This document shows positions 14,146 to 60,614 of a stretch of 64,000 nt of DNA, in pieces. Source of the DNA: Heptranchias perlo (lineage: Eukaryota); contig NW_027139247.1 in NCBI RefSeq assembly GCF_035084215.1, positions 310,001 to 374,000 of the forward strand, written 5' to 3'. The position numbers and the translations under genes were made by a program. Positions within the stretch are counted from its first letter, which is position 1. Each line of letters opens with the position of its first letter. The notes beneath the pieces were generated by a model, which was given only the letters and a program-made list of their open reading frames with translations, did not search any database and was not told where the DNA came from.

Positions 14146-17100
14146 GTAAGCTTTTTACATTCAGTCAATATTTAGATTTAACAGTGCTTCACTGTATCAC
14201 TGCTCCTGCTGTCGGTGTAATAATATTATGTGTTTATCTGTTTATTTTGAAGTGTATGATTTGCAGACACTGGCATCAAAGCAATTAAATTAATTGATCC
14301 AAGTTTTAGTCATATTGTTAATGTAACAACCTGAAAAGAATCACAATTTACTGACTTTTTTTTAAATTCAGCAATTTAGTGGGGATATCTTCTCTTTTGT
14401 AGACGGTCTTGCAGTTTTGTGTCTGAGTCAAGGATTGGTATGGAATCGGGCGAACAAACCAACAATTTTTAAGGGGCCGCTGGAGGCTGTTCAAAAAAAG
14501 CATAGGACATTTTCCCTTTTTATATTTGTTAGCACAGGAGAAACAGGAGAGATCCGCCCGGGCGCACAAAAGAAATCTGGGCCAGTGTTCGAGTATTGGA
14601 GCCCACTGGGGCTGTATCCCGTCCCCATTTGGCCAGATCAGCATCGGAGCCGGCTGATTCCCCGCTCTTCTGGCGCCTGCAGCCAGCCAGCAGCATTTAA
14701 ACAAGGCTGGAAACCGAGCCTCAGGGGCTGACATTGGTCTTCCCCAGTAGCGCGAAGCGGGCTCCGGGCGATCGAGCAGCTCATTTTACACCCAGTCTGA
14801 TGGTCCTTTCCATTGAAGACAGTGGAAGCGAAAATCGGGCGCAGTTTCAAGCGGGCTGTCGATTCGTTATGTGCTCGTTTCGCGCTACTGAAAAAGAGCA
14901 ATTTCACCCCTTACATCTGACACACCCTGGTGGAGCGGAGAGAGGAATAGATGGTGGGCAGGGTTTCAATGGAAAGTAAATTTGGGTAAAATGGGCTGCC
15001 GATTTGCAATCACCAGTTTGACGCGACTCTGCGATACCAATTTCACCCAGGTGGTCACTAATTATCCGAATTGCGACTGAAGCAGTTTTTGTCACTGCTA
15101 CTGGATATGGGAAACAGTGGGGGTTATGTGTTGGTGCCGGGCGAGGTCATTGACCGCTGGCAACTAGTCGGAAATGTTGTGCGTATAGTGTAATCCTGAA
15201 GGGCACGATTCTGAAACTGTGCGATTTAGTATGTTGTATTAAGCTGCAGCCAGTTAGTGTTGTGAGCCCGCAAAGCAAAGTGAAACAAGTGATGCTAAAG
15301 CGAGTCCAACTATTGCTGTGCTGTTGTAATTCTAAATCCAAGTTGTTGTACTTGGTGATTTCTCCGGTAAATATGGGATAGATTTTAGTCTTTACATCCG
15401 GGGTGTTCGGCATCACTTGGGTCAAACACAAAAAAAGGAAATTCCTCCGGGGAGGATGACACTTCCTTAAAAAAACAGCAGATTGTCTTCCATTACTTTC
15501 AATGGAAGGAAAATCCGGCGGGTTGACCGTCAGATTTTCATTTTTATATAGGGGTAGAAATTGGTCTCAGGCGGTAGCGGGAAACGGGCGGTCTGATGTC
15601 TGCTTCCCGTTCTACTCCCTGTCTGAAATTCAGCTTCACTGAGAGTGCATAACACCCGTACCATGAAACACCGCCCATTTCAGGCTACTGCCCAAGATTT
15701 CTCCCCCACAGAATCGGGCGATGTTTAATGTCCAGGTGATTGAGATTACAATCTGTCCCAAGTTTCCTTTGCATGGTAGAAATAGAGTGAGAGCATTAGA
15801 ATTTCCGCTGGTTCTTCTCCCGATTTCGCGCTACCACCTGGAAATCCGGGAATAACGGTGCAACCGGGTGAAGTTACCACAGGAATAAAAACAGAAAAAT
15901 GCTGGAAACACTCAGCAGGTCAGGCAGCGTCTGTGGAGAAAGAAACAGAGTTAACGTTTCAGGTCAATGATTTTTCATCGCAACTGGAACAAATGAAAGA
16001 CAAACCTTTACCAGAAACATTTCTGATATATATCCAAAATTCCTTCTGCCCATGCTCAGACCCGTGGTAACTCCGGCCATTTAACTGGTTGCTTTGATCT
16101 AAGCATTTCCGGTGTTACTTTGCCGGGGCACAATCCAAAATGAAGTGTTTGCTGTTATGTTGTTCACTTGTAACAATGTGTCGCTGAAAAATCTTACTTT
16201 GCTGGTTATTTGCTGATGAAGAGCACGGGAAGATCACCTGGTAATAGTTTTCATCTGCTTCCAGAAAACCAAAAGATGGAATATTCCAGTCGGAATCGTG
16301 TTATCACACTGAAACCTACGTTACATGATTATTGGGGATATTTGTAATGAGGATACACTGGGGTACATTTTAAGCCTGATGCTTGGCTTAAAACTGGCAT
16401 TGGGTTTCGGCCGCCTGCCATAGGTGGGCTAACGGATACGCAACGCCAGTTTTATATCAAGACGGACAGTTGGAAACCTACCCCACGATTTTTATGGAGG
16501 AATAGAGGTGAGCAAGTTAACCGCCCATTCTGCACCCAACCCGAAATTCCTTTCTGTTAAAGTCAATGGAAATGAAAATGGGGCGGATTCTATGACGGGC
16601 ACCGGTCAGAAAAGGCCAATTTTGGTCGGGTGAAAAATCCTCCCGCGTATTTCAGTCCATCAATTTTTTAATCTTTTGAAGTAACTCACAAAATAAGTTA
16701 GTGACGTATGTCCATAGAGAAATGTATCTTTTCAGAATGCCTTAGTTTATCGGATAGAGTGGGAGAAAGAGAAAGAGATTTGAGCAGCAAGAAAAAAAAA
16801 ATCCCTGTATTTTCAGACAAAGAACTGATCTTCCTCTCAATATAAGGAAAGTTAGTAATTCAATTTCCTCCTTTTTGCAGCTAATTTGGTGACAGTTGTG
16901 ATTCTCTCCCGCAGAAGTTGCGGCCTCTCCAATTGCATCACCCGTTACCTGGTGGCCATGGCAGTGGCGGATCTAATGATCCTGATATTTGAAGTGATCT
17001 TTTATGAGCTTCAAGATGCTTATTTCCCATATTCATTCCTGAACTACACTCCAATTTGTAGTTTCAATATCGCTATGCTTTTTGTTTCCATTGATTGTTC

Positions 17101-17794
17101 TGTCTGGTTAACTGTCGCTTTCACCTTTGATCGATTTATGTCTATTTGTTGTCAAAAGTTGCGAACAAAATATTTCACTGAAAAAACCGTGTATGTAGTT
17201 ATAACAGTGGTGAGTTCCTTAAGCTTATTAGAAAATATTCCAATGTACTTTATATTTAAACCTCGGGAAATAATTGACAATGTACCATGGTCCTGCTTTG
17301 TAAAATCAAGCTTCTATACCTTACCCATATGGGTAGCATATTTGTGGATAGAAACAATTTTAACTCCATTTGTTCCATTTGTGTTGATTTTACTGCTCAA
17401 TGCTGTGACCATCAAGCACATTGTACTGGCCAATAGATTGAGGAAGGGTCTCCGTGGAAACAGCAATAGTGAGAATCACAATGATCCAGAGATGGAGAAC
17501 CGAAGGAAATCCATCATTTTACTGCTCGCCATATCTGGCAGTTTTATACTTTTATGGATGCTAATTTTCATAAATTTCATAGTTGTGCAATTTACAGATA
17601 TGCAATTTTTAGAAACAAATTACAATGACCCTTTCACCATTATGGAAAAATTTGGGTACATGCTCAGGTCTTTGAGTACTTGCACTAACACGTTTATTTA
17701 TGCAGTGTCCCAGAGTAAATTCAGAGAGGAATTGAAGAATGCAATAAAGAGTCCTCTGACTCTCATTACTAATTTAATCAAACAATTTAAATGA
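14076..17794 (+). CDS. GPR139/GPR142-like class A GPCR, two coding exons join(14076..14145,16881..17794), 327 aa
   Basis: Spliced product MGLPVIIQIENIYYPILAIIGVPANLVTVVILSRR...; phase-1 GT-AG intron; 984 nt in frame. Seven hydrophobic helices with AVADL (TM2), PICS, SVWLTVAFTFDRF (TM3), PFVPF (TM5) and TCTNTFIYAVSQSKFREEL (TM7/H8). Confidence 0.92.
14724..14910. mobile_element. Palindromic MITE (PIF/Harbinger-like)
   Basis: GGGGCTGACATTGGTCTT..CAGTAGCGCGAAGCGGGC is inverted to GCTCGTTTCGCGCTACTG..AAGAGCAATTTCACCCC; central ccattgaagacagtgg; flanks TCA/TTA. Confidence 0.8.
15551..15707. mobile_element. Palindromic MITE
   Basis: GGGGTAGAAATTGGTC...GATTTCTCCCCC termini with internal inverted arms. 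Confidence 0.65.
15883..15990 (-). mobile_element. Penelope-like terminal-repeat fragment with decayed minimal hammerhead core
   Basis: Minus strand reads gcgatga-aaaatcattgacct-gaaacgttaactctgtttctttctccacagacgctgcctgacctgctgagtgtttccagcattttt. This matches my recollection of the fish/shark Penelope repeat with core CTGATGA..GAAAC. Confidence 0.65.
16360..16645. mobile_element. Two adjacent palindromic MITE copies
   Basis: GGGGTACATTTTAA...TTGGAAACCTACCCC (16360-16484), then a copy centred on gttaaagtcaatggaaatgaaaat. Confidence 0.6.
16881..17794 (+). CDS. GPR139-like GPCR coding exon 2 (TM1-TM7 and tail)
   Basis: Acceptor tttcctcctttttgcag|CT; open to TGA at 17792-17794 (ORF 16886..17794). 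Confidence 0.94.
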
Positions 17795-33396: not shown

Positions 33397-34219
33397 CCAA
33401 TTTGCTAACCGTTGTGATTCTCTCCCGGGGAAAGTGCGGTCTCTTCAAAAGCATTTATTTACCTGGTGGCCATGGCAGCGGCTTATCTCCTGGTCCTGAT
33501 ATTCGATGTGAAATGAATGAAATTTATTTCCCAGGTTCATTCCTGGACAACACTCCCGTCTGCAGTCTGAATTTCTTCCTAATTTTTGCTTCTATTGAAC
33601 ATCCTGTCTGCTTAATGGTCGCTTTCACCTTTGATACATTTGTGGCCAAAAATTAAGAACAAAATATTGCATCGAAAAATCTGGTTGGAACAATGATAGG
33701 CGGCTGTGCATTTTTGAAAACATCCCAATTTAATTTACCTTTTAACCTCACGTATTAATTAACAATATATCGTGGTTCTGCGATGTGTAATCAAGCCTCT
33801 ATACTGTAGCTATATGGGTTACATTCTTATGGGTTGACAAAGCTTTAATGCCTTTTATCCAGATCCTTTTGATTCTGACATTTAATGGTCTGACCATCTG
33901 GCCTGTTCATTCTACTGACAAGTAGCAACAGTGACACAGAAATGGAAAATGGAAGGCAATCCATCCTTTGGCTGCGTTTACACTGTTATCGATGGTAACT
34001 TTTATTCATTGTATCGGTGTACAAATGGCAGATACTCAATATTTGCAGACAGATTACAGTAATCCTTTCACTGTCATGGAACAAACTGGATATATGCTGC
34101 AGCATTTGAATTCCTGCACAAATACCATTATTTATGTAGTGGCCCAGAATAAATTCAGGGAGGAGTTAAATAATCTGTTTAAATATCCCTTAGCTCTAAT
34201 TATTAAGTTAGGGAAATAA
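33397..34219 (+). pseudogene. GPR139-like GPCR pseudogene, exon 2
   Basis: Acceptor ttgcag|CC AAT TTG. Homologous to 16881-17794: LTVVILSRGKCGL, YFPGSFLDNTPVCSLN, VAFTFDTF, NPFTVMEQTGYMLQHLNSCTNTIIYVVAQNKFREEL. Frameshifts (~33455), in-frame stops (33654, 33788) and deletions. Confidence 0.9.
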
Positions 34220-34700: not shown

Positions 34701-35414
34701 AAATCACAGGGTTAGCAGCAGAGGTATTAGATTGACCTCACTCCGTTCAGTTAGGGAGCGAGAAGTGGCCTCGGGATTTGCTCTGGATCACTGACTTGGG
34801 GATGCTGCTGTGTGAAATGTGAATGTGCGGGAAGGATTGGGCTCGCCCGCGTTGCCAGGAACTGAATCGTGTGTCCAGATTCACTGCTGAGGCTCACAAA
34901 GGGAGCCTGTTCCCCCGCGGCCAATGCCAAGGGAGAAAACAGAAAATAAAATCAAGATTGTGCTAATTAAGAATGTGTCACTTTTAACAAAACATATTTT
35001 AAAATCCTTGGCGTGCATTTATTCCGCACGACATTATGTAATATATAGCACCAGTTTAAGCAATTATCGATGGGATTTGATAATGTGGCTTCAATGTGGA
35101 ATTTTTCTAATACAATGACTGACACATAAAGCAGGCGTGAAATGGTTATGCAAATAGATTTGGTTCAGCAATGAAGTAAATGATTCGCAATGACTATTTC
35201 AGCGAGTTGTTGGATCCAAAGCAAGTCTGGCGTTTGACCATCTCAGGTACTGGTTAAACTATGTTGTAATCTGGGGAGTGAAATATAAATATTAGACAAT
35301 CCAAAGATGATGGTGCAGAGCACGCTATAGAGAATGAAGTGACTTGTTTATTCTCTATTCGTGTTTGTTACTCTTCGTTAGTTACCTGACTGTAGCTAGT
35401 CGCTTTCTACCAGG

Positions 35415-47939: not shown

Positions 47940-50900
47940 CTAAAACACGTTCAGGGAGAACTCTTGTAATAATACGATAATGCTGCTAAAATAAAAGGTT
48001 TTCAGCAAGTATCCTTCCCTTTGAAGACATCAATCAAAAATAAAATCATGTTGAGGGTGATGGGGTTAATCTGGGGAAAGTTTTCGTCTGTGGGCTGTCT
48101 GCTACAAAACAGAATGGGGCTGCAATTGTCCTTAGGCAGTAGCGCAAACTGGGCAATAACGAATCAGCAGTCGCTTGACACCATCCTGATTATCTTTCCT
48201 ATTGACTTCAATAATTGGGCTGCTGATTTGCTATCGGCCATTTTGCGTTTCCACCCAAGACCAATTCAACACCCTAAATCCATTGACAAAGAACTGGATT
48301 ACAAATTCACTACACTTCGGGCACACAGACGTTACAACTCAGAAACAGGTCATTTCACCTGACCAGTTTGTGTCAGCATTTACCCAGCAGCAAATAGTTC
48401 CAATCACATTTCCTCACCCTGTTTCCTCCCTTCAACCACTTTCCCTTCATCCACCTAACCAATTTAATCTTAAATGCTCACATTGTTTCTGCCTCAACCT
48501 CGATCACTGGAAGTAGATTCCACATCCTCACAACTCTCTGCGTAAAGAATTTTCTCCTGGCCGTTGTTCTGAATCGCTTACATTTAATCTGGCATCTCTG
48601 ACCCCTCCTTCTTGACCCCTCAACTACTGGAAACAGTCTGCTTCCATCTACCCGGTCTCATACTTTCATAATTTTACACACTTCTATTATATCACCCGGA
48701 AACAAAAAAGATCAATTTCCCCAAGTCTTTCTTTGTATTTGTGTTTCCTCATAACAGAAAATATCCTGGTGAACCCGCCTTGTAGCTTCTTTAAAGCCTC
48801 AATATCCTTCCTATCGTGTGAAGCTCAGTATTCTAGCTGAGGTCTTATTAAGGTTTGATACAGGCTCCTCATTACTTCTAGACTTTTATATTCTACACCT
48901 CTTGTGATAAAACCTATCATTTCATTCGGAAACCTCCCCTCGATAAATTTTCAGTTGTTCTTACACAAGTTAAGCAATGTATCAATTCTCACGGCAATAG
49001 CAGATGTTTAAAATTCAAACATAATCATGGTGGAGACCAAAAGATTTTCTGCAAAGCTGCCTTGTAATACTTTTACAGACAAGAGTGCAAAATTATTCAC
49101 TCGTCTTACCTCTCCGTCTTCTCCACCACATGTAGGTTAAAGCTATAATGATTGCCAGCAATACCAGTACAACTGCAACAATCAGCCCCACATGATTGCC
49201 TTTCTCAATTTTCTCTTCTGAAAAATATTAGAAAAGATTGTATTATTATATGTGTGTGGCGAGACAGTTATATATAAGAAGTGAATCCCTGTGGCTCATG
49301 GCAGGGAGAATGATGCATTGTTTTATCTGGACCGTGTTCTCACACCATATAGTCAAAATATAATATATTACTAAGGTGGAGCCATGTTTCTTTAAGGCCA
49401 CAAAGTTCACTTTTTGTGAAGTAAACAAAGGTTCAGGTCAACTGGAGTATAATCGTTATTTAGTCAGGGAAAGGTGCAGGGTGCTTGTCATTTTTAAGGC
49501 TTCAGGTTAAAAGTAACCAGATGACTTTGCATTTGGAGCAATGTGCGATGTTATCAGTATGACAGCCTTACCCCTGATCATATTGGAGACAGGTTTGCTT
49601 TGGGTTTCTATGGTGGCTGAACTACGTCAGGTTGAGGCAGGTCCTCTGTCTGCCCCATACCTGCTTCCCTGAGCTTGGCCAATTTCCTGGGCTCAGAGTA
49701 ATATGTTGGGTGGGGTGCGGCAGTCTCCCAAGCAGGATTCCTGGGGCGTCAGGGAGGGTGAGATGGAAGGAAGGTGGCGGGAGACGAAGAGCGAGGAAGG
49801 AGAGAGAAAGAAGGGGGCGGAGGGAGAGCAAGAGCAAGAAATGTGGGAAGGGGGAGAGTGGGAGAGGAGGGAGAGAGGAAGGGAAGGAAGGAAGGGAAGA
49901 GAAACAGAGGGGCGGAGGGGAGAGGACGGAAGAAAGATTAAGAGGGGGAGGGAAGAGAGTGGAGGAGAGAGGACAAAGTGGGAGAGGATGGCTGGGAGTG
50001 AGAGGGGAAGCGAGAAAGGGAGAGGAATGGAGGAGAGCAGGAGAATGGGCATGGGGAGGTGGACAGGCAGAGGCAGGTTAGAAGGGAGAAAAGGACACAG
50101 GGAATGATGGGGGCAGTCGGGAGGGGGAGGGGGCGGAAACAGGGAAGAATGTTGGGAACAAGGCAAAGAGGAGCAGGAGAGCAAGGAAGTTGAAGGGGTT
50201 TGAAGAGGATTGTCGATAGAAGTGGGTGATCGGGGAGGGTGAGGCGGATGGGTAATGGAGGATAATGGGGAAAAGGGATGGTGAGGTTGATGTGAGGACA
50301 GGGCAGGAGAGATGGGAGCAGAAGGAAATAAGGAGAAAGAGGGGGTGGAGGATGTTGGGGTGATTAGTGGTGAGGGTAGAACATTTCCCAGAGCTCAGTT
50401 TAATTTTCTGTGGAGGAGGGAAACTGTGGGCCAGGGGAGATATCCCTATTCAGGGAGGGTATGGTACAGGCATGAATCAATTCACTGCCCTGCCCAGTGA
50501 AGAGTTTCAGGGCCCAAAAGCTGTTCATTGGGGACGAGGAGAGGTGAGGCCAACAGGCTGGTTAGTGTGCTCGATGGGTCGGGAGCATACTGGGGCGAGT
50601 GAGGCCCAGAAGCTGGTCGGTTTTGGGGGTGGAAGGTTCAGAGTGTTACTCAGTGTGTGAGCGGGCGTCCTAAATGTGCAATAAGAGTTTATTTACTTCT
50701 GGGAGGGGAAACTTGGCTGAAGGGATGCACAGTGGGGGTGGAAGATCAAGAGGCTAGTTGGTGAGGGGGAGTGCAGGGTGGATGCGCTGCTCAGTGGCTT
50801 AGGAGAGATTTCAGGGGCAAAACTGAAGCATGGTGGGAGATAAACGCTGCACAATTCGGGCAAGATAGATCAGTGAGGGAGGTTCAACGGCTGAACTGCT

Positions 50901-53900
50901 GCAAAGCTTGGGGGGACTGGCAGAGCACAAAGCAATTTTCAGTTGATGTGGGGGGTGGGGGTCAGCTAATGTAAGGAAGGGAACAATGGACAAAACCAGG
51001 GGAGGTAGGGACATTGGATAGAAAAGTTGGGTGAGGGGGGTTGCTAAATTACTGAGGGAACGGGTCACCAAGTTGGAGATCTACTACATGGGGGAGAGGC
51101 ACACGGCCTAAGATGGTGATCAGTGATGGATAAGAGTGGAGAGAGGAACTCCTTGAAAAGCCACTTATAAGGGAGGTGTAAAAGTAATAGTCCTGGTGAA
51201 AGGGAGGGGGGACATGGGTAGGCTGAAAAGATTATCTTTTTTATTATTCATTCATGAGATGTGGGCGTCGCTGGCGAGGCCGGCATTTATTACCCATCCC
51301 TAATTGCCCTTGAGAAGGTGGTGGTGAGCCGCCTTCTTGAACCGCTGCAGTCCGTGTGGTGACGGTTCTCCCACAGTGCTGTTAGGAAGGGAGTTCCAGG
51401 ATTTTGACCCAGGGACGATGAAGGAACGGCCGATATATTTCCAAGTCGGGATGGTGTGTGACTTGGAGGGTAACGTGCAGGTGGTGTTGTTCCCATGTGC
51501 CTGCTGCCCCTGTCCTTCTACGTGGTAGAGGTTGCGGGTTTGGGAGGTGCTGTCGAAGAAGCCTTGGCGAGTTGCTGCAGTGCATCCTGTGGATGGTACA
51601 CACTGCAGCCACTGTGCGCCGGTGATGAAGGGAGTGAATGTTTAGGGTGGTGGATGGGGTGCCAATCAAGCGGGCTGCTTTGTACTACTGGAAGGCCTGT
51701 GGAAAAGGTTGTGGCATGGTGCCCAGTGAGGCAGAGGGAAAGCTAGCAGACACCACCCCCACCCTCCACCCACCCCCTCGGTTGGCTGAATGATCGGAGA
51801 GAACCAAGTAGGATGATGGAAGAGGCCTGTGCCTTAAAGATCTGGTGAGAAGGGGAAGATGAGGGCGAAGTAATGACAGTTGAATGGCTGGTGGCCACTA
51901 TGTGAGCTCCCAGGGCTGGGTGATTGAGTATCTGAAGGCTCCCACAGGTCCATGTGATGGAGATCTTTGGGGAAAGACTCAAGGTGGAAAGTTGCAGCTC
52001 ATGAGAAATGTAAAGAACCAAATTATCTACATAAAAGCTTACATTTAAATAAAAAGGCAAAATTCTTACCTCATTTTACTTACCTACACCAACATGGCTG
52101 CTGTCTCGAAAACCTAGGCTAGTCCACAGTGATACTCGTTGGCCAGAGGCTGCAACTGCATACAGACTCAGGTTTTTTTTTTACTCTCAATATACTGCAA
52201 GAGTCTCTTTGCGCTGCCATGTAACACCCTATCATGTTCAATCTATCACGTAATGTTCTGTTTACAACACCCACTGCCATGGATGGAAAAATAAGAAAGC
52301 AGAAACAAACAGTGTAGCAACAGCAAGTCGGGGAAGTAAAGAGTCTGATATCTGGGAATGGATTGTGAATATAGATTGATCCATTCTCTAAACCAGATAG
52401 ACTGTGGTTATGGATTAATTTGTTCACCAACTTTGTGACATGTGTGTATGGGGGGAGGAGGGTGCGTATATAATGGAGCCATACAGAAAGAAGGAACGAG
52501 AAAGATGTATAGAGAAAGCAAGTGTGTGAGAAGCACACAAGGAAGGGAGATTTACAAAATATGGAAGCGTCAGAAGATAAAAGAAATTTAGAAAAACAGA
52601 AAGAATGAGGAACAGTCAGAGACAGCCTGAAGTACAGAGGTAACAAAAGGGTCATCTGATGTATAAAGAAAAAGACAGAAAGGACCAGACAGAAAAAAGT
52701 TACACACAAAAAAAGATAGTTACAGGAAGTGGAAGACTTTTTCCCCCCTGTTTCTGTCCATGAGCAACAGCACAAAAGGTCAAATAGTAATAAATAAAAA
52801 TCAATAGGGTACTGAATAACGAGGTTCATTTCTAGAGTAATAGAATACTAAAGCAGGGAGGTAATGTTACATTTGGTTTAGTTATTCATTTAATTGATCT
52901 CTTTCTTCTATCCATCTAAGCAGGGGTGAAGGTTTGCGATTATCGGTGTATTTGTCAGTATTGTTGGTCACGTTCTTACCCCAGAGGACTGTCTTCCCAC
53001 CCGGCAGGCTGCTGTGCTCAATATGACAGGCGTATTGTTTCCCATCATACGGATTAAATTGAAGGGTCGTCCTCAGTTGATACGTCCCATCTTCATTAGG
53101 TAATAACCCAGTAGATTTGGTCTCAGGGACATGTTCTCCATTCTTCAACCAGGTCACATTGATGGGCTGCGGATAAAATCCAGTCGCAATGCAGTGAAGA
53201 AACCAATGGTCACTATTCCTGGCAATTATTGAGACCTCAGGGGAAACTATAGGATAGAACTACAGTTATTGTCAACTTCAATCAAAATCGCACATTTCAC
53301 AATAAAATCAAGGGGGTCATTTTGGCGATAGTGTAAAACGGGTGATATCAGATCGGCCGACTATTATATGGGAATGGGGAGAGATGTATAACATGGGCTG
53401 ATCCGACATCGTCCATTGTACAATATCACCAAGAGTTAAAATTACCCCCAGGTTGTTCTGAACTTACCTTTTCTGGTCAGTATTGCTTTTCCAAGTGGAT
53501 AGAACGTCCTCCATAAATCTACACAGTCCTTTTCTAACAAGCTCTTGAAATAAAGGTTCATTTTTCTTTCGTCATCCCATTTCACTTTGAAGGGCTGAGC
53601 TATTGGTTCATGTATAGTCCAAACCAATTTGTCTTTATCAAAACTAAGTGCGTATCTTCCATCAAAAGCGAACTTCAGCACCCCTCCACTAGGATTGTTA
53701 TCATTCAGCTCACAGCCAAACACTCCTTGAACGTAATGAATACCTAAAACAGTAATTCAATCGATTAATAGCTAAATAATTATCGGATCTATTCACACCA
53801 AACCTGCCAGTTTCACAGTTATTTTCCACTCACCTCATATTCAGTCACTCTTTTCACATTATTAAGGGTAGAAATTGAGTTAAGTGTCGAAAACAAGTAG

Positions 53901-56900
53901 GGACACAAAATTTACAGTAGAGAAAGAGAATATTTGGCACCAAATTTAAACTGGAACTGTCCAATTCCATTTCCCGGCCATTGCCCATTTCCTTTAAAAA
54001 TCTTCCTTTTCATATATTTATCAATTTCCCTTTTAAATTATGTTGTATTAGCTGTCACAGTAGAATTGCAGATTCTAATGGGAAAAAAATCCTCATGGTT
54101 CTTTTAGTGAATGTGTGCCTCTTATTAACAATTCACCAATCAGCGGTAACTATTGTTCTTTCTTTACTCTCTCAAAAACCTACGTAACATTGAAAAGTTC
54201 TCATATCCTCCACTAACCTTGGCTATTTGCACCATTTTCCAAGTCAACCTTCAGAACCACAATCACACATTCGAGTGAATCACATCCCCGTGCCTCTAAT
54301 ATCCTTGCTATAATAGGTGCTCAGAACTGCATGCAAAATTCCAACAGTGTACTAACCAATGTCTCCCGTAAGTCAACAGCAATTCCCTGATTTTATACAC
54401 AAAGCCCCCACACATAAAAACCAGACGGGGTGAAACTGGTCTTTGCGGGTAGCACGAAATGGACTGATAGTGAATTGGCAGCCTGTTTTACACCACGCCC
54501 GATTTTTATTTTCTATTGGCTTCAAAGATGTAAAATGGGCTGTCAATTCGCTATGACCTCAATAGACAGGAAAACTGGACGGAGTGTATAACGATCTAAT
54601 ATCGCTCGTTTTTCACTCTCACCTCAAGTTAAAATTACCCCTCACGCATGCAACGCCACAGGAAATTGAGTATCAAAATTAGAAAGCTTGCATCTGTCTG
54701 CACTTCCTGTCCACAAACTCATTCTTCCTGTTGTCATATTTCTGTTACATGTGTGTTAAATTCCTGTGTCCAGGTTTATAATGGTAGCTGCCAACTGTAA
54801 TGCTTGTCATGCTGAAATTTCATCCTCCCACCGTAGGCGGTATGTTTGATCTCAGCTTTGCATTTCGCAGAGAACCTCCTATGTTCCAACCAATTCCACT
54901 AATTTCAAGCAGAGAATAAGTTTTGCTATTTAACTATAATGCTATCTATGGTATATTAGATTAGATTTCTAATATAATGCATTATATTTATATTTATATG
55001 CACTATCTGACCATGCAACCTTACTTCTGGTTGTCACATTTTTGGAACATCTTATGTCAACTTTTTCCCTTTATAAATTCCAATGTTCACATTTAAAATG
55101 GGAGATGCCAGTGTAAAGTTAGCAGAATCCTTGCTCTAGAAGTGGCACTGTAATGCTTCAGTTTTATATTGTCCAACTCTTCAGCCGATGCATCTGGGTA
55201 ACTCCCATGTACAAACCAACTCTCCTTCTCAACTTCACAATTTGCTATCAATTTTGCTAATAAACTTTAAATAATATTATAACATGACAGAATGTATGAC
55301 ACAAAATAGGGATTGAATTATGTTTGTACAGTTTGGGCTAATCTTCCCTTCCCTCCAACCTTGCTACAATAGTTTTGACCCCCTTGGCTTAATTGTGACG
55401 TTGGCCGATAGCGGATCAGTCGCCCGTTATACATCTCTCCCGATGATCATTTCCGCTGAAGTAAATGGAAATGAAAATCAGTAGATGTTATAACGGGTGA
55501 CTGATCGATATCACCCATTTTACACTGTCGGCCATCGTCGAAATATCACCCCCCCACCCCGCTCCACCCACCGTGTGCAATGCCATGGCAGACCGACTAG
55601 TATTATATTACAAACCTTGGGGTTCCCCTGATTCTCCACTGTAACTTCATCAGATATATGTAAAAACCCTGGAGAAATGGCACAATGCAGAATCTTACAA
55701 GCAGCATGCAGCTTGTTGTAAAACCATGGATGTGCTGCCAGCGATTTTCCAATTATTAAATTCAATTGGGGTAGTTTTTACTTTGTGTGATCGTGTAAAT
55801 CAGGCGATATTGCATTAGTCACCCATTACATGCCCCGCCCAATTCTCCTGTATACCATCGCCCAAAGATAAAATTACCTCCAATGGATATAAAACTGCTG
55901 GCAGTGCACTATGATTTTTCTGATAAGCCACCTTCTGGATATAAGATGGCATTGGAGCCTCAAAATTACATATCTACATTACAAATCATATGTGTTCACC
56001 AATATCATTCAACAAATGAAATAATACGAATACAAATCCTTAAATTTAATATTGCCAGTATCATTCAATAAACACAATGGGGTCGACGTGGATTTTATGT
56101 GATAGTGTAAAACAGCTGTTAATGAATCTGCAGCCCGTTTTATATCTCTCTTAATTTTAATTTCCATTGTAGCCAATAGAAATAAAAATCAGGAGAGATG
56201 TAAAACTGGCTGTCGATTGGCTAAAACCCAGAGTCAAAATCTACCCTAATTTTACCAACATGATTCAATAAATGTGATATTGCCAATAGCATTCAATAAA
56301 TGTGTTGCTAATATCATTCATTAAAAGTAATATTACCATGATTCAAAGGAACATAGGAACAGGAGTAGGCCATGCAGCCCTTCGAGCCTGTTTTGCCATT
56401 CAATTATATCATGGCTGATTTATATGTTAACTTCATTTAGCCAACTTGGTTCCATAACCTTTAATACCAACAAAAATCGATCAATCTCAGTTTTGAAATT
56501 TTCAATTGACCCCCAGCCTCAACAGCTTTTAGGGGAGAGAGTTCCAGATTTCCACTCCCCTTTGTGTGAAGAAGTGCTTCCTGACATCACCCTCAACGGC
56601 CTAGCTCTAATTTTAAGGTTCTGCCCCCTTGCCCTGGACCCTCCAGCAGAGGAAGTAGTTTCTCTCTATCTCCCCTATCAACTCCTTTAATCATCTTAAA
56701 CACCTCAATTGGATCACCCCTTAATCTTCGATACTCAAGGGAATACAAGCCTGTCCTAATGTGAACCTTTTAGTTCAGGTGAATCTGTGCTGCACCATCT
56801 GCCACGGTTTTGCCCACTCACTTATTCTATCAATGTCCCTTTGCAACTTTCTGCTCCCATCTACACTATTTACTGTCCCACCCAATTTGGTGTCATCAGC

Positions 56901-59900
56901 TCGCTATTCCTTCATCTCAGTCATTTATAAATACAGTGAAAAACTGAGGCCCCAGTACAGATCCCTGGGGAACATCGCTAGTCACATCCTGCCAATTTGA
57001 GGACATACCCATTACCCCTACTCTCCGTCTCCTACCTCATAACCAATTCCCCATTCATGTCAATAGGTTGTCTCCAAATTCATGCACTCCCTTTTCTACC
57101 ACGTTAGTTACCTCCTCAAAAAATGCAACGAGGTTCATTAGACACGACTTACCCTTTACAAATCCATACTGGCTCTCTCCGATCACTTCATATTTGACCA
57201 AGTGCTCAGTCACTCTGTCCCGAATACCAGATTCTAGTAATTTCCCCACAACCAACGTTAGACTAATAGGCCTATAATTTCCAAGTTTATCTCTCCTACT
57301 CTTCTTAAATAATGGAGTGACATTGGCAATTTTCCAATCCAAGGGGACAATTCCTGAATCAAGAGAGTTTTGAATGATGATGACTAGAGCATCTACTATT
57401 TCCTCACCGACTTAATTTAATGCCCTGGGATGGAAAGCATCAGGTCCTGAAGATTTATATATTTTCAGACTCAATTTTTGCTCCATTACCATTTTTTTAT
57501 ATTAAATCTAATAAGTTCCTCCCCTTGATTTATTTTTAGTTTTCCTCGCATGTCTGGTGCTTTATCCTCACGCTCTACTGTGAAGAGACCAATAAGTATT
57601 TACCAAGTCTGCCATTTCCTCATTTTCAATTCGATTATCACCTGCGTCTGTCATTGAGGGGTGCACGTTACACTTCACCACCCTCTTTCTCTTGTAAAAA
57701 CCTTTAGTGTGATCCTTGATATCCCTCGCAATTTTTTTGTGTAATCCCTTTGCTGTTCTTTATATCTCTCCCAGTCCGCTCAATCTGTACTGTCCTTTGC
57801 ATTGGTATAAGCCCTTTCTTTTAGTTTTATACTATCTCTCACTTCTCTTGTTGACCAAGAGTGAGAGTAATTTTAACCTTTATCAATGTGTAAAACGGGC
57901 AACGAAAAGTAAAATCGGGCGTATTGTACACGGGCGCTGATCCGATATTGCCCAATTTACATTTTTGCCAAGAGCTAAAGTTATCCCCCATAAACTTAAT
58001 ATTACCAATATGATTCGTTATATGTAAAATTACAAGCAAAACCATTCAATAAATATTACAAATATCATTAATGAAATGTAATAATACTAATGTCATCCAA
58101 TAAACACTGGAGGTGGTGGCTGGGGAGGGGGTATTTTCACTTTTATCACCAAGTGAACTGTGGGCAATGGTCAATCGGCCGTTGGTTTTACACCAAGGCC
58201 GATCTTCAGAAAATCAATCCAGGTGTAAAACGGTCAGCTGATCCACAATCACCCGTATTTCACCTGGCGAGAAAAGTTAAAATGACTCCCGGGAGTGAAA
58301 TTCAACTTCAGCAGAGTTGCAAACAGGTCGGTAACGGAAACGCCGTCCGTTATATACCCCACCCGATTTTATTTTGAAGTCCCGCCACAGTTGACTTTCA
58401 GCCCCAGTTCCAAAACACACTGCGCGTTATCGCCAGCTGTGGAGTCGAAGGCAATGCTGCTGTCCGTTGGCTCCATACCCGTCGCCCATCTTTCCTGCAA
58501 CTCCATGTTTGAACCTCTCCGATCAGGTTTCGGCCCCAATCAAAGTCAAAAGTGACAACCTCTGTGACTGTGGCCCTGGTGAACTATCCCTCCTCATCCT
58601 TATTTCAGTAGCTTTTAATGCAGTTGACCACACCACCCTTCTCCAATGCCTCTCCTCCGTTGTCCAGCTAAGTGGGAATGCCTTTGCTTTGTGCCACTAT
58701 TACCTGTCCAATCGTAGCCAGAGAATCTCCTGCAATCTCTTCCCGTCCCTGCACCGTTACCTCTGGAGTCCCCAATGGATCGATCCTTGGCCCTATCCTA
58801 TTGCTCATCTACATGCTGCCCCTTGATAACATCATCCAAAGACATGGAGTCTGGTTCCACATGTACACTGACGACACTCAGCTCTACCTTACCACCTCTC
58901 TTGACCCCTCCACTGCATATGTTTTGTCAGACTGTTTGCCCAACATCCAGTCTTGGATGAACTGCAAATTCCTCCAAGTAAACATTGGGAAGACCACAGT
59001 CATTGCGTTCGGCCCCCACCACAATCTTCGTTCTCTCACTACTGATTCCATCCCCCTCCCTGGACACTGTCTCAGGCTGAAACTGACCGTTTGCAACAAT
59101 GGCATCCTATTTGACCCTGGGCTGAGCTTCCAACCCCACATTTCCATCACAAAGACCACCTACATCCACCTCCACAAAATTGCTTGTCTCTGCCCCTGCC
59201 TCAACCCATCTGCTGCTGCAGGCCTCATTCATGCCTTTGTTACCTCTAGACTCGACTATTCCAATGCTCTCCTGGCTGGCCTCCCGTTTTTCACCCTCCA
59301 TAAACTTGAGCTCATCCAAAACTCTGCTGCGTGCATCCTAACTTGCAGCAAGTCCTGTTCACCCACCACCCTTGTGCTCGCTGACTTACACTGACTCCCC
59401 CGCCACCAACACCTTGATTTGGAAATTTTCATTGTTATGCTTAAATCCCTCCATGTCCTCTACCCTTCCTATTGTTGTGACCTCCTCCAGCCTTTTAAAC
59501 CTCCAACAAATCTATGTCCCTCCAACTCTGGCCTCTTGTGCATTTCCCAGTCCCTTCGTCCTACCACTGGCAGCTGTTCTTTCAGCTATTTAGTCCCTAC
59601 GTTCTGGAATTCCCTCCCGAGCCTTTTCACCCCTCTCTTCTCTTAAGACGCTCCTTAAAACCTATCTCTTTCCCCACGATTTTAGTCACCCATCGTACTA
59701 TCTCCTTCTTTGGCTCGGTTTCAATTTTTGTCTGATATCACTCCTGTAAAGCATCGAGACGGTTTCCTACATTGACGGCGCAATGCAAATGCAGGTTGTT
59801 ATTGCCATGCTCTCTGAATAATTGTCCCTGGATGTTCTGTCCACCTTGCTACAAATTCTGCCTTAGATATTCGCTCAACGTAGGAGTCTGCCCATACTGA

Positions 59901-60614
59901 CCAGTGTCAGCTAGGGCCAATTTAAAACATTTTTAGCACAGCCCTCTCCTCATAAAGAAGAGAAATTGGAAACCATGCTGCCCTGTTTCAGTCAGCTGGT
60001 GTTAGCTGAAATCAGTTGTATTGGAGCTGTGCATTCTCTGAAATCGGTAGTGTTAGCACTGTGTGTTCTCTGAACTCCAGAGTGTTAGCGCTGTCCATTC
60101 TCTGAAATAGACAGGCACTGTGCCTTGTCTGAACTCTGTAACCTGCCTGACAACGACTGGATCAAATTACACATTGCAGACAAAGTGTTGGGTGAGTATT
60201 GTCTTCCTGGTGGTAAGAATAAGCATTATCTTTATGTTCACCACTGTGGTGTCACTAAACGCAGCCAATTCGATATTGCTGATTTGACACTATCCCCTGA
60301 AGTTAAAATGACCCCAGTTGTTCAATGCATTCGCTTCAAATGAATATACTCACTTGATGTTTCGTTGCTCTGCTGCAACCATCTATCAAACTGCCCCTTG
60401 ATGAGTCCGTGGAAACCAGCTTCAGTGATTGTGTATTCTTCCCAGTACCTCTTGTCAAATGCATCCGCCAGCCATTGCTGTCTTGGAACAGTTATTTTCA
60501 TATTCGAGTCGTAATAGTGTATCTCACAGCCATCCAAACGCCCCATAACACTATATTCTGGTAGATCAGCACTTCCATGGTTCAGGGTGTAATAAAATAG
60601 CAGAGAGTGAGACT
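47908..60614 (-). CDS. Non-classical MHC class I heavy chain, 5'-partial (leader not found): complement join(60354..60614,53468..53743,52980..53246,49110..49217,47908..47939)
   Basis: All introns are GT-AG and phase 1. Exon lengths 261/276/267/108 keep frame with no stops; ~314 aa, alpha1-alpha2-alpha3(C1 Ig)-TM-tail. Confidence 0.9.
48116..48274. mobile_element. Palindromic MITE
   Basis: GGGGCTGCAATTGTCC...GACCAATTCAACACCC; centre ctattgacttcaata. Confidence 0.7.
48330..48930 (-). mobile_element. Old CR1 3' fragment
   Basis: ttccacatcctcacaactctctgcgtaaagaattttctcc and cttgacccctcaactactggaaacag match the reverse complement of the CR1 ORF2 C-terminus. Confidence 0.65.
49110..49217 (-). CDS. 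MHC class I connecting peptide/transmembrane exon
   Basis: tttttcag| EEKIEKGNHVGLIVAVVLVLLAIIIALTYMWWRRRR G|gtaaga: a hydrophobic span followed by a basic stop-transfer signal. Confidence 0.88.
49750..50370. repeat. Polypurine (G/A-rich) low-complexity tract
   Basis: Almost purely G/A on the + strand, with many GGG and GGAGG runs. Confidence 0.85.
50550..51880 (-). mobile_element. Old L2-like endonuclease-region fragment interrupted by a family-B LINE
   Basis: C-rich minus strand with PHQLKIAL and PPLVLSI stretches typical of fish L2 ORF2; split by 51235-51682. Confidence 0.45.
51235..51682 (-). mobile_element. Family-B LINE 3' end, well preserved
   Basis: ORF 51382..51669 LIGTPSTTLNIHSLHHRRTVAAVCTIHRMHCSNSPRLL, plus the family tail and an A-run. 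Confidence 0.9.
52980..53246 (-). CDS. MHC class I alpha3 (C1-set Ig) exon
   Basis: VSPEVSIIARNSDHWFLHCIATGFYPQPINVTWLKNG...LLPNEDGTYQLR...YACHIEHSSL..VLW; cctatag| acceptor, |gtaaga donor. Confidence 0.95.
53312..53449. mobile_element. Palindromic MITE in the alpha2-alpha3 intron
   Basis: GGGGGTCATTTTGGCGATAGTGTAAAACGGG...GAGTTAAAATTACCCCC. Confidence 0.78.
53468..53743 (-). CDS. MHC class I alpha2 exon
   Basis: SIHYVQGVFGCEL..FAFDGRYALSFDKDKLVW..AQPFKVKWD..LLEKDCVDLWRTFYPLGKAILTRK; C101/C164 pair; gttttag| acceptor, |gtaagt donor. Confidence 0.95.
54427..54641. mobile_element. Palindromic MITE (composite)
   Basis: GGGGTGAAACTGGTC...AAGTTAAAATTACCCC. Confidence 0.7.
55386..55555. mobile_element. 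Palindromic MITE
   Basis: Arms gatcagtcgcccgttata / tataacgggtgactgatc around tttccgctgaagtaaatggaaa. Confidence 0.72.
55768..55881. mobile_element. Palindromic MITE, internally deleted
   Basis: GGGGTAGTTTTTACTTTG...CAAAGATAAAATTACCTC. Confidence 0.7.
56079..56247. mobile_element. Palindromic MITE
   Basis: GGGGTCGACGTGGA...TCAAAATCTACCC; arms gcagcccgttttatatctctc / gagagatgtaaaactggctg. Confidence 0.72.
56348..57830 (-). mobile_element. CR1 LINE, internally deleted
   Basis: ORF 57055..57342 NYRPISLT..QYGFVKGKSCL; tail ggaacataggaac. Confidence 0.88.
57863..58405. mobile_element. Three palindromic MITEs (57863-57988, 58127-58290, 58291-58405)
   Basis: Family termini GRGRGTAATTTTAAC and GTTAAAATGACYCC; the last two copies abut. 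Confidence 0.7.
58490..59803 (+). mobile_element. L2 LINE RT/3' fragment
   Basis: ORF 58672..59394 GVPNGSILGP, FHMYTDDTQLYL, FVTSRLDYSNALLAGLP; L2-type tail tgtaaagcat...ggcgcaatgcaaatgcaggttgttattg. Confidence 0.9.
60027..60110. repeat. 32-bp tandem repeat, ~2.6 copies
   Basis: ctgtgcattctctgaaatcggtagtgttagca / ctgtgtgttctctgaactccagagtgttagcg / ctgtccattctctgaaatag. Confidence 0.7.
60354..60614 (-). CDS. MHC class I alpha1 exon
   Basis: ttttcctttcatcctag| ESHSLLFYYT..LPEYSVMGRLDGCEIHYYDS..PRQQWL..YWEEYT..QSNETS A|gtgagt; N86 sequon retained. Confidence 0.95.

Follow-up and report, generated by a model that had tools for sequence, protein, structure and literature searches.

An intact Heptranchias perlo member of the shark UGA lineage of non-classical MHC class I, with hydrophobic groove-facing residues and a conserved tyrosine tail motif

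The gene and its exons

The window, the whole stretch of 64,000 nucleotides of Heptranchias perlo DNA that was analysed, holds on its minus strand the greater part of an MHC class I gene. It comes from an unplaced 530-kb contig on which a further class Ib gene is found, along with a GPR139-like array. The alpha1, alpha2 and alpha3 exons are all open, bounded by AG and GT and in phase 1, much as a preliminary description of this DNA had them (open, phase-1 and canonically spliced), and its coordinates fall exactly on the start of alpha1 and the end of alpha3. A transmembrane exon and a very short tail exon, both absent from that description, complete the coding part within the window:

60354..60614, minus strand: alpha1 exon, 261 nt, phase 1, with the NET sequon at its end and an extra Cys in LDGCEI
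53468..53743, minus strand: alpha2 exon, 276 nt, phase 1, with Y122, F143, K146, W147, L159, L167 and F171
52980..53246, minus strand: alpha3 exon, 267 nt, phase 1, an Ig C1-set domain with its Cys pair and an NVT sequon
49110..49217, minus strand: transmembrane exon, 108 nt, phase 1, with WWRRRR as its last residues
35254..35270, minus strand: terminal coding exon of isoform X1, 17 nt, encoding D-YNIV-stop, a YxxPhi sorting-type motif
35018..35023, minus strand: candidate poly(A) signal AATAAA, the first after the stop and about 230 nt downstream of it
15920..15930, minus strand: tail of RefSeq isoform X2 (D-A-A-stop), the sole match in the window, within a repeat

The leader exon lies beyond the window, at contig position 426179 and 55 kb upstream of alpha1, with a second leader-like exon in between, at 398916. 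Leader, alpha1 to alpha3, transmembrane and 17-nt tail exons together give an open coding frame of 981 nt, each of the five introns having canonical splice sites, and a product identical letter for letter to the Heptranchias perlo protein XP_067834249, for which RefSeq offers only the label 'F10 alpha chain-like'. The 17-nt exon occurs once on the whole contig. In a BLAST search of the contig the flanks of the X2-tail site match 12 times, as against once each for the other small exons, and that tail is probably an exonised repeat or an annotation artefact. An X2-Y-box-like pair stands 122 and 97 nt upstream of the ATG. That the two leaders go back to a duplicated promoter finds no support: the similar stretch of 1.4 kb runs in inverted orientation and shares sequence with a retrotransposon-like frame, and direct alignment covers no more than 62 nt around the leaders. 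The gene is single-copy in this Heptranchias perlo assembly (G000), each of the three ectodomain exons having one match at 100% (1 of 26, 1 of 29 and 1 of 45 matches), with the next-best genomic matches among the best candidates scored at 51, 44 and 51% identity.

Membership of the UGA lineage

The three ectodomain exons all lead to the PDB entry 9CH4, which bears the title 'shark nonclassical MHC class I, UGA': alpha1 as its best PDB match (E 7.6e-43; the exon is also 100% identical to P0001), alpha2 at E 3.8e-37 and alpha3, to which Pfam assigns a C1-set, at E 6.3e-47. With the whole protein phmmer gives 9CH4 473 bits (E 3.8e-141) and the next chain 190 bits. The ectodomain aligns to 9CH4 ungapped at 73% identity, which falls within the 62-78% seen among UGA orthologues. 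The crystal sequence itself is outside the trees described below, but a count by eye finds only 21 differences over 268 positions between it and P0013 of the whale shark, which ties it to the UGA clade indirectly.

In an alpha1+alpha2 tree that took in 4 of the 13 Triakis alleles, the 20 UGA rows from sharks and rays form one clade (support 100/99), the rays on a branch of their own, and the Heptranchias perlo branch (0.14) is not longer than those of its relatives. AU tests on 30 rows (9 of the 20 UGA, 4 of the 12 sister, 2 of the 13 Triakis and 3 of the 6 bony) reject grouping of the gene with classical UAA (p 1.3e-30), with UFA (p 7e-4) and with an unnamed sister family (p 9e-3). The last of these (P0032) is the nearest paralogue, at 39-46% identity, and is encoded on this contig too, 116 kb upstream of alpha1. 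The alpha3 tree, with 5 of the 12 sister proteins, supports the UGA group at just 53/99, and a long-branch caecilian row falls inside it.

The gene is thus an intact Heptranchias perlo member of an already named and crystallised lineage: a new species' copy, not a new kind. Of the two possibilities held out by the preliminary description, a described shark non-classical lineage or a new one, the former is right. By that description's own reasoning such nesting takes away the novelty and leaves the non-classical call as it was.

The antigen-binding groove

Groove and anchor residues were numbered in HLA style by alignment to P0085, a classical allele of the shark Triakis, in place of HLA-A2, and using what we take to be the HLA positions. 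On this re-alignment the protein has F7, Y59, Q84, Y122, A123, F143, K146, W147, L159, L167 and F171. It also has NET as the N86 sequon, one additional Cys (position 31) and paired Cys in alpha2 and in alpha3, and every substitution, sequon, cysteine and disulfide listed beforehand is found again. The peptide-terminus anchors are kept at three of the eight positions in Heptranchias perlo, at five in most orthologues and at all eight in 13 Triakis UAA alleles. The earlier count of three therefore stands for this species, but read as a trait of the lineage it overstates the loss. F7 and F171 belong mostly to Heptranchias perlo alone, since the other UGA proteins have Y7 in 18 of 19 cases and Y171 in 16, and 9CH4 carries both. 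What is lost throughout UGA is T143, Y159, W167 and D122 (each kept in none of the 20), and position 84 is K, Q or E in 18 and R in two skates; G97, F99, L114 and L159 are invariant. The extra alpha1 Cys is present in 18 of the 20 and, among the five Cys of this protein, has none to pair with.

Hydropathy over 38 positions that we presume to line the groove, a sequence proxy, is 0.85 here and 0.41-1.29 across UGA (n=20), against -0.19 to 0.25 in the 13 classical Triakis alleles; coelacanth class I P0086 is also high at 0.69. This difference, and the rejection of classical nesting, bear out the proposal of a non-classical class I molecule with a hydrophobic groove. Special conservation of the UGA groove across orthologues was not found (groove versus rest 0.789 versus 0.770, P 0.34). 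As to allelic polymorphism, five skate UGA sequences show 0-6 differences in alpha1-alpha2, a weak comparison which mixes loci and species, and the 13 Triakis UAA alleles show a mean of 13.6. A structure model from an 18-row alignment reached a pLDDT of 61.9, with most of alpha1 below 50 and the domains misplaced (rmsd 11 to 9CH4), and served only for reading PDB titles; among its fold matches 9CH4 comes first, followed by CD1, MR1, ZAG and HFE at tied Z.

The cytoplasmic tail

A YxxPhi motif directly after the basic stop-transfer run is found in 16 of the 20 UGA proteins, and in none of the 13 UAA or of the 11 sister proteins that have a membrane segment. The preliminary description had passed over it. 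In Heptranchias perlo it reads YNIV and is terminal; the four UGA models without it are three from Pristiophorus and one from Rhincodon. The skate UGA tail RRDYQNIP matches RRSYQNIP of human CD1b at seven of eight positions, the human residues being read off a primer in PMC2194227, passages of which have the tail tyrosine motif serve the endosomal localisation of CD1b, CD1c and CD1d. The primary UGA paper may already describe the motif.

Ligand, trafficking and recognition

According to a 2025 review UGA is CD1-like and binds lipids; its one sentence on this cites a personal communication, and it reports CD1d-like lipids in UGA by crystallography and mass spectrometry. The 9CH4 entry contains three copies each of the heavy chain and of beta2m (9CH4_B is beta2m). 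It seems very probable that the Heptranchias perlo gene, as a UGA member, works in a CD1-like manner. Going by this orthologue its membrane-anchored heavy chain, presumably expressed in Heptranchias perlo, likely pairs with beta2-microglobulin, and the hydrophobic groove likely carries lipids and not peptides, as its residues and the review suggest. By analogy with CD1, the YNIV tail is predicted to draw the product, through adaptors, into endosomes, by way of which it likely recycles, for lipid swap, and the lipid-loaded product would be shown to T or NK-like cells. The non-peptide ligand that had been proposed earlier gains support from groove hydropathy and from the reported lipid binding.

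Rather improbable, though the least so of the alternatives, is that the same UGA gene has for its natural ligand, in the way of chicken YF1 or MR1, a lipopeptide or else a small amphipathic metabolite. The acyl part would then occupy the hydrophobic floor, and Y59, K146 and W147, with Y7 and Y171 in most orthologues, would grip the polar or peptide end. The five anchors kept by most orthologues speak for this, as does the ranking of sequence matches after 9CH4, which are MR1 and classical class I and not CD1; YF1 with an N-acylated glycine (9EB3, 9EB4), ZAG and MR1 also tie with CD1 among the fold matches. However that fold ranking depends on a poor model, the hydroxyls of Y7 and Y171 are gone in Heptranchias perlo, and the lipids reported in the review are CD1d-like.

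An intact gene that is silent or decaying in Heptranchias perlo is very unlikely. The 55 kb between leader and alpha1 and the leader-like exon within it would fit, but the frame is open over 981 nt with all five introns canonical, the branch is no longer than its relatives', the X2-Y-box-like pair precedes the ATG, and full-length skate orthologues lie on Logan contigs whose 1.4-3.5 kb could not span an unspliced gene, from which we infer that the skate orthologues are spliced. Equally hard to credit is an undescribed non-classical lineage, or UFA in place of UGA. The RefSeq name is uninformative, and literature searches for UGA found no primary paper, a '9CH4' query giving no related paper among the matches listed; the PMC10751288 supplement had no UFA or UGA gene label in the places listed (the first two per term), and neither accession queried was found there. 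Yet the identity to 9CH4 is inside the orthologue range, while that to the UFA gene of the same genome is 34%, with the AU test also against UFA, and the idea is already refuted unless 9CH4 is mislabelled.

For the UGA lineage, already named, crystallised and analysed for lipids by others, the find extends the range to a hexanchiform shark and supports the lineage's age, which will not surprise a specialist. It adds that, of the anchors at the groove's N-terminal end, UGA retains most, and a contrast in tails: a motif in UGA, no tail in UFA (two models) and a long tail without the motif in the sister family. The conserved YxxPhi tail is a handle for a trafficking experiment and a character for the question of CD1 orthology.

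Comparison with known class I systems

The UGA reference (PDB 9CH4, released 2026-03-18; PMC12562908) shares with the window protein Y59, K146 and W147, F143, L159, L167, Y122, C31 and the N86 sequon, and differs in having Y7, Y171 and K84 for F7, F171 and Q84; a Cys at 63, present in 9CH4 and several orthologues, is absent here. Copy number is low in the lineage as for this gene, Pristiophorus having three UGA models.

Shark UFA (PDB 8GM8; PMC10751288) is non-classical and CD1-like by report, beta2m-bound like UGA (8GM8_B), and in the alpha1+alpha2 tree falls on the side of UGA and the sister family. The UFA gene of this genome (G000:C1101, P0044), with 8GM8, titled UFA, as its best PDB match, is separate and has lost W147. 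It and a second UFA-like protein, P0174, stop at the hydrophobic segment and have no cytoplasmic tail. P0170 was ruled out as UFA by the alpha1+alpha2 tree and removed from the trees. The sister family has a hydrophobic groove as UGA does, but forms its own clade (100/99), has 12 near-identical copies in the assembly, keeps D122 and W167, is without the N86 sequon and bears its long tail without YxxPhi. UAA-like genes are also present separately in this genome, and the names UDA-like and UEA-like for other genes are our presumption.

Classical shark UAA (the Triakis alleles; PDB 6LUP) shares the class I fold, exon plan and phases, the N86 glycan, the disulfides and Q96 with the window protein, at 32-34% identity, but has all eight anchors intact, and its variation is concentrated in the groove (0.854 versus 0.976).

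CD1 (human CD1b and CD1d, chicken CD1) resembles UGA in reported lipid binding, beta2m pairing and a short tail with a membrane-proximal YxxPhi, and differs in that UGA keeps several peptide anchors. The alpha1-alpha2 region scores 81 bits on Pfam MHC_I (cut-off 28.3) versus 21 on MHC_I_3 (cut-off 35), which we take to be the CD1-type model; CD1 is absent among the listed PDB matches to alpha1, alpha2 and the full-length protein, and the Atlas matches are class I clusters. Judged by sequence, alpha1-alpha2 is closer to class I and MR1 than to CD1. A groove half-way to CD1, with five anchors kept and a hydrophobic floor, joined to a near-CD1b tail signal might still mean that the trafficking form of CD1 has its surviving shark and ray orthologue in UGA, endosomal lipid sampling being shared by descent since the first jawed vertebrates. 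We hold this to be a doubtful but serious possibility; if true, UGA, UFA and the sister family would divide compartments as CD1a-e do.

An intact UGA gene

The class I gene on the minus strand of the window (C1080:310001-374000) is real and intact, and is an orthologue of UGA, a shark non-classical lineage already named and crystallised. An alpha1 search returned 11 proteins, headed by an H. perlo class I-like protein with a 100% match, and RefSeq lists two proteins for the gene (XP_067834249 and XP_067834250), which when mapped back onto the DNA supply the leader, transmembrane and last exons.

60614-60354, minus: alpha1 exon, open, AG/GT-bounded, phase 1
53743-53468, minus: alpha2 exon, open, AG/GT-bounded, phase 1
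53246-52980, minus: alpha3 exon, open, AG/GT-bounded, phase 1
49217-49110, minus: transmembrane exon, from the RefSeq protein
35270-35254, minus: last coding exon, 17 nt, from the RefSeq protein
G000:C1080:426179-426128, contig positions beyond the window: leader exon, from the RefSeq protein

The six exons join into a 981-nt frame that is isoform X1 plus stop, splice sites are canonical at all five introns, and among the best-scoring candidates in the assembly alpha1, alpha2 and alpha3 have one exact match each (one of 26, of 29 and of 45 matches). The preliminary description was thus right about three open, phase 1, canonically spliced exons, and all its listed substitutions are found when HLA-style numbering is carried through a Triakis classical allele, HLA-A2 itself lying outside the alignment; the position numbers of groove residues follow HLA usage.

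Chain A of 9CH4 ('Crystal structure of shark nonclassical MHC CLASS I, UGA', released 2026-03-18) is the best solved structure for each of the three domain exons as well as for the full-length protein, which scores 473 bits against it and 190 against the next structure. Identity to 9CH4 is 73%; between 9CH4 and the whale-shark member (P0013) a count by eye gives 21 differences over 268 positions. A 53-row alpha1+alpha2 tree gathers the 20 UGA-like shark, skate and ray proteins in a single clade (support 100/99). The non-classical call is correct and, of the two origins left open earlier, a described lineage stands and novelty falls. Support in the alpha3 tree is lower (53/99), and a long-branch caecilian row falls within the group. 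AU tests on a 30-row tree rejected constrained groupings of the gene with UAA-like rows (p 1.3e-30), with UFA (p 7e-4) and with the adjoining sister family (p 9e-3). UFA is present in this genome as a separate gene (P0044 on C1101, with 8GM8, titled UFA, as its best match), as are several UAA-like genes, so the UGA assignment is not one by default. A literature search that reached few subscription journals found no primary UGA paper.

Upstream region and neighbours

At G000:C1080:426276-426301 (L018) TGACG and ATTGG precede the ATG of the leader by 122 and 97 nt, a spacing which we take to be that of the MHC X2-Y module. Such a pair is found two times along the 530-kb contig, both on the minus strand. 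A second intact leader-like exon sits between alpha1 and the leader used by RefSeq (G000:C1080:398865-398916, L015), similar to a skate leader, with an ATG and a phase 1 GTAAGT donor that splices in frame to the gene. A Y box lies upstream of this exon, as does an ISRE-like site; it may mark an alternative promoter or be what is left of a lost copy.

The sister class Ib gene lies next in the upstream direction and forms its own clade in the alpha1+alpha2 tree; the assembly contains 12 near-identical copies. Sites are at G000:C1080:482061-505660 and on C1097, C1101, C1105, C1406, C1424, C1486 and C1772; alpha1 and alpha2 proteins are near-identical and 11 sampled loci share 96-99% identity, introns included, reflecting either recent amplification or unresolved haplotypes. 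Downstream is an array of GPR139-like single-exon genes, with about 15 matches on the contig and two in the window:

16889-17776, plus: GPR139-like single-exon gene, open frame
33405-34210, plus: GPR139-like single-exon gene, frameshifts and stops

One skate UGA model is fused to a GPR139-like gene, which suggests an old neighbourhood. As for MHC linkage, what the unplaced 530-kb contig offers is this second class Ib gene and the GPR139-like array.

Elsewhere, G000:C1101:40000-243600 carries five class I genes, presumably UEA, whose alpha2 lacks the first Cys (both in four of the five); one UDA-like gene lies nearby, at about 14-15 kb. Contigs C1050, C1057, C1161, C1438 and C1654 together carry some ten alpha2 matches of UAA-like type, most with an identical alpha3 score.

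Groove and tail

Over 38 positions that we take to form the groove, mean hydropathy is 0.85 in the H. perlo protein and 0.41-1.29 among the 20 UGA proteins, while the 13 UAA alleles of Triakis span -0.19 to 0.25; it is below zero in five of six bony-vertebrate class I proteins, a coelacanth protein reaching 0.69. The predicted structure is poor and unfit for pocket measurement; this chemistry is read from sequence. Retention of only three anchors holds for H. perlo but not for the lineage, other UGA proteins keeping Y7 (18 of 19) and Y171 (16 of 19), as does 9CH4. Losses of T143, Y159, W167 and D122 are lineage-wide, position 84 is mostly K or Q, and G97, F99, L114 and L159 are invariant. UGA groove positions are not specially conserved relative to other positions in the same domains (P 0.34); UAA alleles, by contrast, vary mainly at theirs. 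The H. perlo beta2m exon was used to find three beta2m chains in 9CH4, so D122 to Y is no bar to pairing in the orthologue.

G000:C736:597212-597481 (L143): beta2-microglobulin main exon

Isoform X1 ends WWRRRR-DYNIV-stop. A YxxPhi motif directly follows the basic run in 16 of 20 UGA proteins. It is absent there from all 13 UAA alleles, from the 11 sister proteins that have a membrane segment and from six bony class I proteins. The UGA proteins without it are Rhincodon (YSLT) and three Pristiophorus japonicus paralogue models as annotated (P0002, P0004, P0006), whose tail exons may be mis-modelled. UFA-like models P0044 (G000:C1101:256000-263200, L095) and P0174 end in a hydrophobic segment without cytoplasmic tail, a pattern consistent with GPI anchoring or with models that are incomplete.

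Proposed working and comparison with CD1

Gene structure, copy number, UGA lineage, tail motif and the chemistry of the groove are established by this analysis. Judging from the PDB entry of the orthologue, and from a review (PMC12562908) that calls UGA CD1-like and lipid-binding on a personal communication, the heavy chain most likely folds with beta2m and binds lipid. The complex would most likely load self lipid and reach the surface, be internalised through YNIV, exchange lipid in endosomes and present it to lymphocytes; the traffic, the expression in H. perlo and the lymphocyte recognition are steps that we infer. The chief competing idea is that the ligand is a lipopeptide or metabolite, as in chicken YF1 or MR1, which the anchors retained in UGA permit; lipid is still the most likely ligand, on the orthologue evidence.

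According to PMC2194227, endosome access of CD1b, c and d depends on such a tail motif, and its primer translates to a human CD1b tail end of RRSYQNIP, against RRDYQNIP in skate (Amblyraja) UGA. A comparable spot in Triakis UAA reads GYNPA, so YxxPhi could have arisen independently, in a few steps, from an ancestral class I tyrosine, and the match is a lead, not proof of common descent. PMC10751288 mentions UFA as unpublished and CD1-like, with orthology to CD1 hard to assess. For this UGA member, alpha1-alpha2 scores 81 bits with Pfam MHC_I against 21 with MHC_I_3, and its language-model neighbours are class I clusters. The product likely works like CD1, though by alpha1-alpha2 sequence it is nearer class I models and is at most a possible CD1 orthologue.
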